Assembly: GCF_030013205.1 (NCBI RefSeq)
Contig: NZ_CP122648.1
Length of the DNA stretch: 64,000 nucleotides
DNA from: Escherichia coli
GTDB lineage: Bacteria; Pseudomonadota; Gammaproteobacteria; Enterobacterales; Enterobacteriaceae
Strand: one strand, 5' to 3'
The notes beneath the pieces are model-generated. The model did no database searches. It worked only from the letters and a program-made list of their open reading frames with translations, and was not told the origin of the DNA. Both the position numbers and the translations under genes were made by a program. This document shows, piece by piece, positions 48,976 to 50,590 of the stretch. The first letter of the stretch is position 1. The number at the start of each line of letters is the position of its first letter.

Positions 48976-49009
48976 TCCCATCTGCACAAGCGATAACTCG
49001 CTTTGCCCA

Positions 49010-49033
49010 GAGGATGCACTCGCATCCTCTTTT
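49010..49033 (+). terminator. rho-independent terminator of rnk
   Basis: GAGGATGC-ACTC-GCATCCTC followed by TTTT. Confidence 0.7.
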
Positions 49034-49117
49034 CGCTCAAATATCAACCAGATTTATCATTTTGCTCTTAAGCGCAGCATTCTAATCTGAACTGGTTATT
49101 CATCTGCGGAACCTCAT

Positions 49118-49207
49118 ATGAGCGAAGCTCTCGGTATCACTGCATTTTATATATTCATAGCCGCGATTATTGTTGCTGCAGTGCTATACCTTGAACAACG
49201 CTGGTAG
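49118..49207 (+). CDS. candidate 29-aa single-pass membrane peptide (MSEALGITAFYIFIAAIIVAAVLYLEQRW)
   Basis: Short ORF below the track cutoff, translated by hand; one hydrophobic helix; weak RBS; no homology evidence. Confidence 0.2.
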   Translation: MSEALGITAFYIFIAAIIVAAVLYLEQRW

Positions 49208-49330
49208 CGCCTGGTTTTATTTATTTTCCAGCTCAATAGCAAATTCAGATCAAATCAGCCTCGCAAATCATAGATTCATAACCAATAATGTGCTGTTATG
49301 TATACATGCAAAAACAAGGAGAGAATGCTT

Positions 49331-49759
49331 ATGTACAAGACAATCATCATGCCAGTGGATGTTTTCGAAATGGAATTGAGCGACAAAGCTGTTCGCCACG
49401 CTGAATTCCTCGCCCAGGATGACGGAGTTATTCATCTACTTCACGTACTACCCGGGTCAGCCAGCCTGAGCCTGCACCGTTTTGCCGCTGATGTGCGTCG
49501 TTTTGAAGAGCATCTGCAACATGAAGCAGAAGAACGTCTGCAAACGATGGTCAGCCACTTCACCATCGATCCTTCCCGCATTAAGCAACATGTCCGTTTT
49601 GGTAGCGTGCGGGATGAAGTCAATGAGTTGGCAGAAGAACTGGGGGCTGATGTTGTAGTTATCGGTTCGCGCAACCCTTCGATTTCGACCCATCTGTTAG
49701 GTTCTAACGCCTCGAGCGTGATCCGCCACGCCAATCTGCCGGTGCTGGTTGTGCGTTAA
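49331..49759 (+). CDS. uspG: universal stress protein UspG (YbdQ)
   Basis: 142 aa from [19 protein letters not shown].. with RBS AAGGAGAG; the track ORF starts 11 codons upstream. Confidence 0.9.
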
Positions 49760-49829
49760 TTGCCAGAATAAATATCCCGCCCTGCCCGGAGCCATCCCGG
49801 CGGGGCTTTTTATTGCCATAATAAATATC

Positions 49830-50535
49830 CTCCGGCATAGCCGGAGGTTTTTCAAATGCGCCTATAAGGCTCTCTTACCAGCCGCGCCCTAACAGGCGCA
49901 CACGATCTGACATTTGCATCCAACTTCGTTACTTACGGCCCGTAAACGGGCTGCCCGGATAGGGAATCGATAACTGCTCTCCCATTTTATCCTCTTCAAG
50001 CTGGTGCTTTATGTAATCCTGTATCTTCGCCGTGTTCTTACCCACTGTATCGACGTAGTACCCTCTGCACCAGAACTCCCTGTTCCTGTATTTGAATTTC
50101 AAATCACCAAACTGCTCGTAAAGCATCAGACTGCTTTTCCCTTTCAGATATCCCATAAACCCGGATACGCTCATTTTGGGCGGGATCTCCACAAGCATAT
50201 GGATATGATCTGCACAGCATTCAGCTTCCAGAATCCGTACGCTTTTCCACTCACACAGCTTTCTCAAAATACTGCCTATTGCTCTACGCTTCTCTCTGTA
50301 GAACACCTGTCTTCGGTATTTTGGCGCAAAAACTATGTGATATTTACAGTTCCATCGGGTGTGCGCTAAGCTCTTTTCGTTCCCCATTGGGACCCCCTTT
50401 TGATTTCTTGTTTGACACTTGCAGTTGCCAGACCGCAAGGTGTTTTAACAAATCAAAAGGGGTTTTAATAACTGGCTCAAAGCTGAAAGCTTTCCGGAAC
50501 CCCCAGCCTAGCTGGGGGTTTTCTGTGCACAAAAA
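49830..50535 (-). mobile_element. IS200-family insertion sequence (boundaries approximate, +/- about 30 bp)
   Basis: Contains a 152-aa Y1 (HUH) transposase gene; upstream of it the characteristic perfect hairpin CCCCCAGC-CTA-GCTGGGGG (50500-50518) and a second stem-loop (CCCCTTTTGATTTG..CAAATCAAAAGGGG) occluding the RBS; size about 0.7 kb as expected for IS200. Confidence 0.8.
49929..50387 (-). CDS. tnpA: IS200 transposase TnpA (Y1/HUH)
   Basis: MGNEKSLAHTRWNCKYHIVFAPKYRR..ADHIHMLVEIPPK.. with HUH motif HIH; near-identical to the IS200 TnpA I recall from Salmonella; the track ORF starts 17 codons upstream. Confidence 0.9.
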   Translation of the reverse strand: MGNEKSLAHTRWNCKYHIVFAPKYRRQVFYREKRRAIGSILRKLCEWKSVRILEAECCADHIHMLVEIPPKMSVSGFMGYLKGKSSLMLYEQFGDLKFKYRNREFWCRGYYVDTVGKNTAKIQDYIKHQLEEDKMGEQLSIPYPGSPFTGRK

Positions 50536-50560
50536 AGCCGCCAGGTTTGACCCCGGCGGC
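50531..50560 (-). terminator. rho-independent terminator of ahpF
   Basis: On the minus strand GCCGCCGGGG-TCAAA-CCTGGCGGC followed by TTTTTT, 30 bp after the ahpF stop. Confidence 0.7.
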
Positions 50561-50590
50561 TAAGCAATTGCAGGTGAATCTTACTTCTTC

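Follow-up and report, generated by a model that had tools for sequence, protein, structure and literature searches.

The direct repeat and twin hairpins downstream of uspG in Escherichia coli are most probably explained by an IS200C end lying beside the native uspG terminator

Results

The uspG-ahpF region and its twin hairpins

The DNA analysed, referred to here as the window, is a stretch of 64,000 nucleotides of Escherichia coli, and a genome search found the region discussed below to be 100% identical to E. coli strain K_EC180; the gene names used are those of the RefSeq annotation of that identical record. According to this annotation and the open reading frames, uspG, the tnpA gene of IS200C and ahpF follow one another at the site on the plus, minus and minus strands, respectively. 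The uspG gene, encoding universal stress protein G, occupies positions 49331-49759 of the plus strand (Pfam Usp, 103 bits), tnpA encodes a Y1 (HUH) transposase of 152 amino acids at 49929-50387 of the minus strand (Pfam Y1_Tnp and RefSeq), and ahpF extends from 50591, also on the minus strand. The further genes annotated by RefSeq in the region are rna, rnk and yldA. The uspG and ahpF genes are convergent and their terminators face each other.

The stretch immediately downstream of uspG (49757-49852) is composed of TAA, TTGCCAGAATAAATATCC, a first hairpin, CTTTTTA, TTGCCATAATAAATATCC, a second hairpin (CCTCCGGC-ATA-GCCGGAGG) and TTTTT. It can be read as two units, the first with TTGCCAGAATAAATATCC at 49760-49777, a hairpin at 49779-49806 (GCCCTGCC...GGCGGGGC) and a run of five T at 49807-49811, and the second with TTGCCATAATAAATATCC at 49813-49830, a hairpin at 49829-49847 and five T at 49848-49852. 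Hairpin 1 has a predicted fold energy of -22.5 kcal/mol (z = -2.96 against shuffled sequences) and hairpin 2 of -15.5 kcal/mol (z = -4.05), an equally good fold for the latter being obtained in 0 of 200 shuffles. At its full extent the direct repeat is 22 nt long, 49756-49777 against 49809-49830, with 20 of 22 positions identical and a spacing of 53 nt; in the 18-bp form in which it was originally described, 17 of 18 positions agree. The window sequence, the folds and the repeat scan thus bear out the description in the first-pass annotation of twin hairpins accompanied by a direct repeat downstream of uspG.

We also asked how unusual such a repeat is. A pair with 20 of 22 or more identical positions not more than 100 nt apart occurs a single time in the 64-kb window, and no comparable repeat (at least 20/22, at most 100 nt apart) was found in 30 windows simulated with a Markov-1 model. 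Exact matches to the 11-mer AATAAATATCC in the window are confined to the two repeat copies; with up to one mismatch allowed, 0.94 occurrences are expected over both strands of 64 kb, from which, by our own arithmetic, the naive chance of a match within the 53-nt neighbourhood is roughly 4e-4. The in-register TTGCCA heptamer lowers this naive chance further. Taken naively, the repeat exceeds chance.

Borders and ends of the IS200C element

The tnpA gene lies within an IS200C insertion sequence of 711 bp at 49820-50530, on the minus strand, delimited by empty-site comparison and named after its transposase, for which RefSeq gives the product name 'IS200/IS605-like element IS200C family' transposase. 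The top strand of the element is the minus strand of the window, with the left end at 50530 and the right end at 49820. The Pfam profile Y1_Tnp (PF01797) matches TnpA with 130.7 bits (E = 3.8e-38) over profile positions 2-121 of 121, and the translation shows HIH and YY motifs.

The ends were set by comparison alone, with empty sites and with other copies, and carry an ambiguity of 0-2 A. Most E. coli genomes have no insertion between uspG and ahpF. The empty sites of HKUOPY1 and TL20 lack window positions 49820-50530, and their native spacer reads ...TAATTGCCAGAATAAGTATCC-(uspG hairpin)-GCTTTTTAATGCCAT^AAAAAAGCCGCCAGGTTTGACCCCGGCGGCT..., where ^ marks the insertion point; the reading across the junction is ...CTTTTTATTGCCAT^AAAAAAGCC. 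A synthetic empty site of 440 nt, made by deleting the 711 bp of 49820-50530 from the window in silico, is identical at 440 of 440 positions, in a single alignment, to XJ6.1 and JNEC-KY178, and the XJ6.1 sequence, read directly, agrees with it. These comparisons show the boundaries of the element and the empty site directly. In its own orientation the element starts with GTGCACAGAAAACCCCCAGCTAGGCTGGGGGTT... and ends with ...GAAAAACCTCCGGCTATGCCGGAGGATATTTATT; it has no terminal inverted repeats, the ends GTGCAC... and ...ATATTTATT bearing no inverted-repeat relation to each other, and comparison with the empty sites reveals no target duplication.

The window segment to which other E. coli copies of IS200C align starts at 49820, or at 49815 for a few of them, and stops at 50536-50544. 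Left ends of IS200C number about 16,000 places in the E. coli collection. The right end was further defined with 120 metagenome contigs that contain the right-end 33-mer and provide 93 different right-end junctions. No base is conserved upstream of AATAAATATCC in these junctions, except for a bias towards A at position -1 (53/93, 57%), and the end of the element at AATAAATATCC is therefore confirmed. A right end reaching 5 nt into GCCAT, as some BLAST alignments would have it, is unsupported, with no such conservation in the 93 right-end flanks.

Both ends carry a subterminal hairpin. The right-end hairpin, detected by folding and by the terminator scan, occupies 49829-49847 with five T to 49852 and is terminator-like on both strands; on the top strand of the element the order is GAAAAA, hairpin, ATATTTATT and then the element end, so that the hairpin lies 9 nt from it. 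At the left end, Rfam identifies the IS200 regulatory region with the tnpA 5'UTR stem-loop and art200 (STnc490) at 50397-50520 of the minus strand, with 146.4 bits for STnc490 against a gathering score of 56. Here the hairpin (50498-50520, AACCCCCAGC-CTA-GCTGGGGGTT) is a perfect 10-bp palindrome that corresponds to nt 11-33 of IS200C. The left-end and right-end hairpin regions are 78% identical in direct orientation. With a Y1 transposase, seamless ends, hairpins at both ends, a target at the left end and a left end of IS200 type, the element belongs to the IS200 group. On the twin-hairpin region itself, the Rfam candidates Ysr202 (24 bits against a gathering score of 315) and anti-hemB (20 bits against 49.5) were rejected as far under threshold.

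Assignment of the hairpins and of the repeat halves

Which hairpin is chromosomal and which belongs to the element had been left undecided by eye; the empty sites and the IS copies now allow both to be assigned. On this comparison, hairpin 1 is chromosomal and forms the native intrinsic terminator of uspG (49779-49811 of the plus strand, hairpin at 49779-49806 and five T at 49807-49811), its terminator activity, like that of every hairpin described here, being predicted. The hairpin is found in all empty sites, and a hairpin GCCCTGCC..GGCAGGGC followed by a T-run is present downstream of uspG in Escherichia spp. including E. albertii, in Salmonella enterica subsp. arizonae and in Citrobacter. 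It is thus a GC-rich stem-loop with a T-tract, located past a stop codon, from which it starts at a distance of 20 nt, and conserved across genera. The A-rich leader that precedes it is 83% complementary to the T-tract, which gives the whole the look of a bidirectional terminator. It was absent from the output of a simple terminator scan, probably because of the internal loop in the stem: the uspG hairpin consists of 8 bp, an internal loop, 3 bp and a 4-nt loop, whereas the IS200C hairpins have perfect stems of 8-10 bp and a 3-nt loop. Hairpin 2, on the same sequence comparison, is the right-end subterminal hairpin of IS200C.

The two repeat copies differ in origin in a similar way. Copy 1, TTAATTGCCAGAATAAATATCC (49756-49777, plus strand), is wholly chromosomal, being made up of the uspG stop codon and the A-rich terminator leader, and is present in empty sites. 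Copy 2, TTTATTGCCATAATAAATATCC (49809-49830, plus strand), is composite, as the empty sites, the IS copies and the 93 junctions show: its first half, TTTATTGCCAT (49809-49819), comes from the chromosome and its second half, AATAAATATCC (49820-49830), from the right-end tip of IS200C. The TTGCCAT in copy 2 is accordingly chromosomal. In empty sites, unit 1 is succeeded by TTGCCAT or ATGCCAT, with the ahpF terminator immediately after that; a second unit of the type CCTCCGGCATAGCCGGAGG past the uspG terminator was not present in the empty sites compared, where only unit 1 is seen. The comparison with empty sites had been named beforehand as the test of whether both units are simply native to the region, and they are not. 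The suggestion that the structure is tied to the IS200 border, on the other hand, holds, hairpin 2 and AATAAATATCC being the right end of IS200C.

The ahpF terminator is the target

The left end of the element adjoins the intrinsic terminator of ahpF (50531-50561, minus strand), which was recognised by folding, in the terminator scan and in the empty sites and consists of a hairpin at 50536-50561 and six T ending at 50531. Its fold energy is -21.8 kcal/mol (z = -4.32), and it is intact in empty sites, where the T-tracts of the uspG and ahpF terminators are 8 nt apart, separated by the spacer ATTGCCAT. Nothing intervenes between the last of these T and the IS left end on its 3' side, the junction on the top strand of the element reading AGCCGCCGGGGTCAAACCTGGCGGC-TTTTTT|GTGCAC.... 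The same arrangement is seen elsewhere: all 20 unique IS200C left-end flanks from metagenomes, representing independent insertions, show a GC hairpin whose T-tract runs precisely up to the left end of the element. These flanks terminate in TTTTT (14 flanks) or in TTATT, TTCTT and TGATT (two each), and the right end of IS200C itself finishes with TTATT. This terminator-targeting pattern, directly observed here, is at least partly known already, since a strong excess of terminator-like sequences directly upstream of IS200/IS605 elements has been reported (bioRxiv 10.1101/2025.07.22.666184). The idea that IS200/IS605-type elements insert next to structured DNA therefore stands for one side of this insertion, where the T-tract of the ahpF terminator meets the left end (50531), and falls for the other, the uspG hairpin beside the right end not being the target.

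The computed folds show one pairing at each end of the element: AGAAAA, immediately 5' of the left-end hairpin, is paired to the T-run, and the right-end hairpin is bracketed by UGAA and UUUA paired to each other. These predicted pairings would match the layout expected from the IS608 guide and cleavage-site model. In the IS200/IS605 family, the active (top) strand and the target lie on the lagging-strand template. The GC skew of the window plus strand is negative near the site (-0.056 to -0.068 between 48 and 64 kb), but across all 64 kb it is weak and mixed (-0.022). The local value would be compatible with a minus strand that serves as lagging-strand template, the replication origin lying outside the window.

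Haplotypes and recurrence of insertion at the site

The leader of the uspG terminator matches the IS tip at 7 of 11 positions in E. albertii (AGAATCTGTATCG), at 10 of 11 in most E. coli (AATAAGTATCC) and at 11 of 11 here (AATAAATATCC). In these sequences, the leader drifts like ordinary spacer DNA, the match to the IS tip having been reached stepwise. The exact 75-nt chromosomal haplotype of the window (49745-49819) is carried by 492 E. coli genomes, including 042 and PCN033, nearly all of which have no IS at the site.

The element is present between uspG and ahpF in 28 genomes of several haplotypes, namely 18 pig-associated strains (99.9-100% identity), two FDAARGOS strains (99.4%), five further strains (98.1-98.6%) and three Z142 isolates (96.4%) with a different TnpA protein. 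Three junction registers were observed: GCCAT|IS|AAAAAA (0+6 A) in the window, E100341 and others, GCCATA|IS|AAAAAA (1+6 A) in E300010 and Z142-2, and GCCATAA|IS|AAAAA (2+5 A) in XJ5.2. In E300010, IS200C lies in the same A/T run next to a quite different uspG leader (TAGATAAAAGTATTTATGTCGCCC), and there is therefore no repeat there; IS200C is also found at the site with the AATAAGTATCC/AATGCC alleles, in E100341 and XJ5.2. Comparison of these sequences indicates several independent insertions into the T-run of the ahpF terminator, although some register differences may be caused by slippage in the A-run after insertion, and the registers and haplotypes together suggest repeated natural transposition. 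A single clonal insertion is ruled out by the several haplotypes, the three registers (0+6, 1+6 and 2+5 A) and the divergent IS variant.

We also examined the 100 nt next to the right end of 90 IS200C insertion sites for a same-strand 11-mer resembling the right-end tip at up to one mismatch. Only one site, the present one, has such a match and the other 89 have none, which rules out a right-end mimic as a general trait of insertion sites. As for the uspG-ahpF segment itself, the median number of places per genome is one and the maximum two.

Discussion

Origin of the repeat

It is highly likely, in our view, that the structure consists of an IS200C end beside the native uspG terminator and that the repeat is a chance look-alike formed at the insertion junction. 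IS200C sits in the stretch of 20-odd bp that separates the convergent terminators of uspG and ahpF. Elements of the IS200/IS605 family encode a Y1 HUH transposase and move by single-strand 'peel-and-paste' transposition. Integration would have occurred directly 3' of the six T of the ahpF terminator, on the strand that has the ahpF message sequence, with no target bases duplicated, leaving the left end next to the ahpF terminator and the right end 8 nt past the uspG T-tract. Hairpin 2 would be the expected binding site of the transposase, and the A-rich GAAAAA on its 5' side and the T-rich ATATTTATT on its 3' side, on the top strand, may serve as guide and cleavage sequence by analogy with IS608. 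Because of this A-rich 5' side and T-rich 3' cleavage end, the right end presents itself on the window plus strand as an A-tract, a GC hairpin and a T-tract, which is the same layout as that of the uspG terminator. The repeat would then have arisen when chromosomal TTGCCAT was joined to the IS tip AATAAATATCC, which by chance matches the leader TTGCCAG-AATAAATATCC of this haplotype. The coincidence is less surprising given the architecture shared by the IS right end and the uspG terminator. Since the naive probability is low, about 4e-4 for the 11-mer alone, a small residual probability is kept for a functional link in which the resemblance contributed to insertion or retention of the IS.

One form of such a link would be that the uspG terminator and its leader (hairpin and GATATTTATT, minus strand) either derive from or imitate a right end of IS200 type, which attracts IS200C or serves the transposase as a surrogate for mobilising the 53-bp flank. 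The leader does match the right-end tip at 11 of 11 positions and abuts a hairpin just as the true tip does, the heptamer that follows, CTGGCAA, resembles the ATGGCAA that flanks the true right end, and IS200C occupies the site recurrently. For the recurrent use, however, the ahpF terminator on the left-end side is explanation enough, in keeping with the 20 of 20 flanks, and IS200C has entered the same T-run next to the unrelated leader of E300010 and in AATAAGTATCC haplotypes. The hairpin is moreover an old uspG terminator common to Salmonella and Citrobacter, differing in shape from the IS200C hairpins by its internal loop and 4-nt loop, and the leader match came about by stepwise substitutions. 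Neither the 89 other insertion sites, none of which has a mimic, nor the one or two places per genome taken by the uspG-ahpF segment give any hint of attraction or mobilisation, and we regard a relic or mimic as improbable. Slightly more doubtful still is the proposal that the uspG terminator and leader, which on the IS top strand read hairpin-GATATTTATT and lie 53 nt past the true right end, form a working surrogate right end, or a mimic that favours capture or retention of the IS. If a surrogate right end did operate, IS200C could occasionally excise together with the uspG terminator and carry a host terminator to new sites.

The first-pass annotation had also offered a local tandem duplication, which would mean that a 53-bp unit of leader and terminator past uspG was copied in place, with later divergence of the second hairpin. 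Such an event would account for the 20/22 repeat, the 53-nt spacing and the presence of a GC hairpin and T-run after each copy, but the empty sites have a single unit, unit 2 is half chromosome and half IS200C, IS200C copies at more than 90 unrelated loci share its hairpin and 11 of the 22 bases of the repeat, and the two hairpins cannot be aligned; duplication is therefore abandoned as hardly conceivable. Equally implausible is gene conversion or templated mutation between the copies after insertion (G to A at 49772 and A to T at 49813), for although both changes from the commonest E. coli allele improve the repeat, from 18/22 to 20/22 identical positions, the haplotype with both variants is that of the 492 genomes that nearly all lack the IS, ATTGC also occurs in other Escherichia lineages and in E100341 an IS at that very position coexists with unconverted G and A alleles.

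Consequences for the locus

Both host terminators are intact in the filled site, hairpin and T-tract unchanged, so for annotation purposes uspG and ahpF keep their own terminators. Any read-through from uspG would meet the IS right-end hairpin, terminator-like on both strands. Two terminators, that of ahpF and the one in the IS left end, would shield tnpA, an arrangement that would fit the low expression for which IS200 is known (PMC4513863).

An IS end adjoining a host terminator is an already known and ordinary kind of feature, and the finding itself is of little consequence. It does fix the exact borders of one IS200C copy and settle which hairpin is host and which is element, and it illustrates that an eye-catching repeat can arise simply by an IS tip being joined to host sequence that looks like it. 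Perhaps more useful is a by-product of the analysis, namely that 20 of 20 left ends lie on terminator-like T-tracts and that the ahpF terminator has been hit repeatedly in E. coli.

Comparison with known systems

The closest relative among the systems compared is the IS200 of Salmonella. The two elements are alike in their length of about 707-711 bp, a single tnpA gene (Y1_Tnp), the lack of inverted repeats and of a target duplication, and a region with the 5'UTR stem-loop and art200/STnc490. Both have a perfect palindrome at the left end, at nt 11-33 of IS200C here and at nt 12-34 of Salmonella IS200, where it is reported as a terminator (PMC4513863). There is no essential difference between them, the present element being 711 bp long instead of 707 bp and adding one more copy, at the uspG-ahpF spacer.

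In IS608 of Helicobacter pylori, TnpA binds hairpins at both ends, the right end is cleaved 10 nt 3' of its hairpin, and guide bases situated 5' of each hairpin recognise the sites of cleavage (PMC3201880). IS200C shares with it the subterminal hairpins at both ends on one strand and insertion on the 3' side of a short target that remains outside the left end, and the distance between right-end hairpin and cleavage site is similar, about 10 nt in IS608 and 9 nt in IS200C. A short stretch 5' of each hairpin that is complementary to the cleavage sequence is present in IS608 and, judging from the folds, probably also in IS200C. The two differ in the target, which is TTAC in IS608 and a T-run (TTTTT, loosely TTNTT) after a hairpin in IS200C, and in the distance from left-end cleavage site to hairpin, 19 nt against 12 nt; the palindromes are imperfect in IS608 and perfect in IS200C, which also has no tnpB.

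The locus further resembles convergent and bidirectional intrinsic terminators, in that the uspG and ahpF terminators face each other and the uspG leader is complementary to its own T-tract, but the second hairpin downstream of uspG is an IS end of the same layout and no host terminator. Finally, group IIC introns integrate just downstream of the stem-loops of Rho-independent terminators (PMC7923331), and the left-end flanks of IS200C show the same preference. The likeness is limited to the choice of site, as the introns move by a retrohoming ribozyme whereas IS200C relies on an HUH transposase.

Target preference and probable recurrent insertion of IS200C

Inspection of the sequence directly joined to the left end of IS200C revealed a GC-rich, terminator-like hairpin followed by a T-tract in all 20 independent insertions with a readable left-end flank. 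The pattern is seen at the ahpF terminator in the window (50531-50561) and in copies from metagenome contigs (L007, L011, L025, L027, L034, L035, L039, L044, L046, L053, L058, L061, L063, L064, L071, L073, L077, L107 and L117). The flank terminates in TTTTT in 14 of the 20 insertions and in TTATT, TTCTT or TGATT in all the others, TTATT being also the terminus of the right end of IS200C itself.

Among 5426 E. coli genomes, 28 have IS200C inserted at the T-run of the ahpF terminator (window 49815-49820 and 50531-50536; sites in other genomes, L157-L162). The filled T-runs belong to several haplotypes, display three junction registers and include one divergent IS200C variant, of 96.4% identity and with a different TnpA protein, and together these suggest that the ahpF T-run is a hot spot at which IS200C has inserted repeatedly and independently.

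Structure of IS200C and of the surrounding locus

The right-end region of IS200C contains an extra inverted repeat (49857-49900) in the stretch that separates the right-end hairpin from the stop codon of tnpA. Its 13-nt arms, TGCGCCTATAAGG and CCTAACAGGCGCA, are 85% complementary and 18 nt apart. Between the same end motifs, some copies (L046, L063 and L077) measure 704, 708 or 709 bp as compared with 711 bp, owing to small internal indels.

Upstream of uspG, the rnk-uspG gap in the window lineage is only ~350 bp (48976-49330) and holds the small gene yldA; in other E. coli, such as strain HKUOPY1, ybdR, encoding a zinc-dependent alcohol dehydrogenase, lies upstream of uspG. Within the ecoli_genomes collection, the uspG-ahpF spacer has matches at two places on plasmids, and ~10 genomes carry two copies of the uspG-ahpF segment.

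Similarity of the right end to Ysr202

The right-end tip and hairpin of IS200C (49810-49852) gave a weak, sub-threshold Rfam match to the Yersinia sRNA Ysr202, a family whose gathering score is 315. The match, at 24 bits, probably reflects an IS1541/IS200-derived portion of the Ysr202 family.
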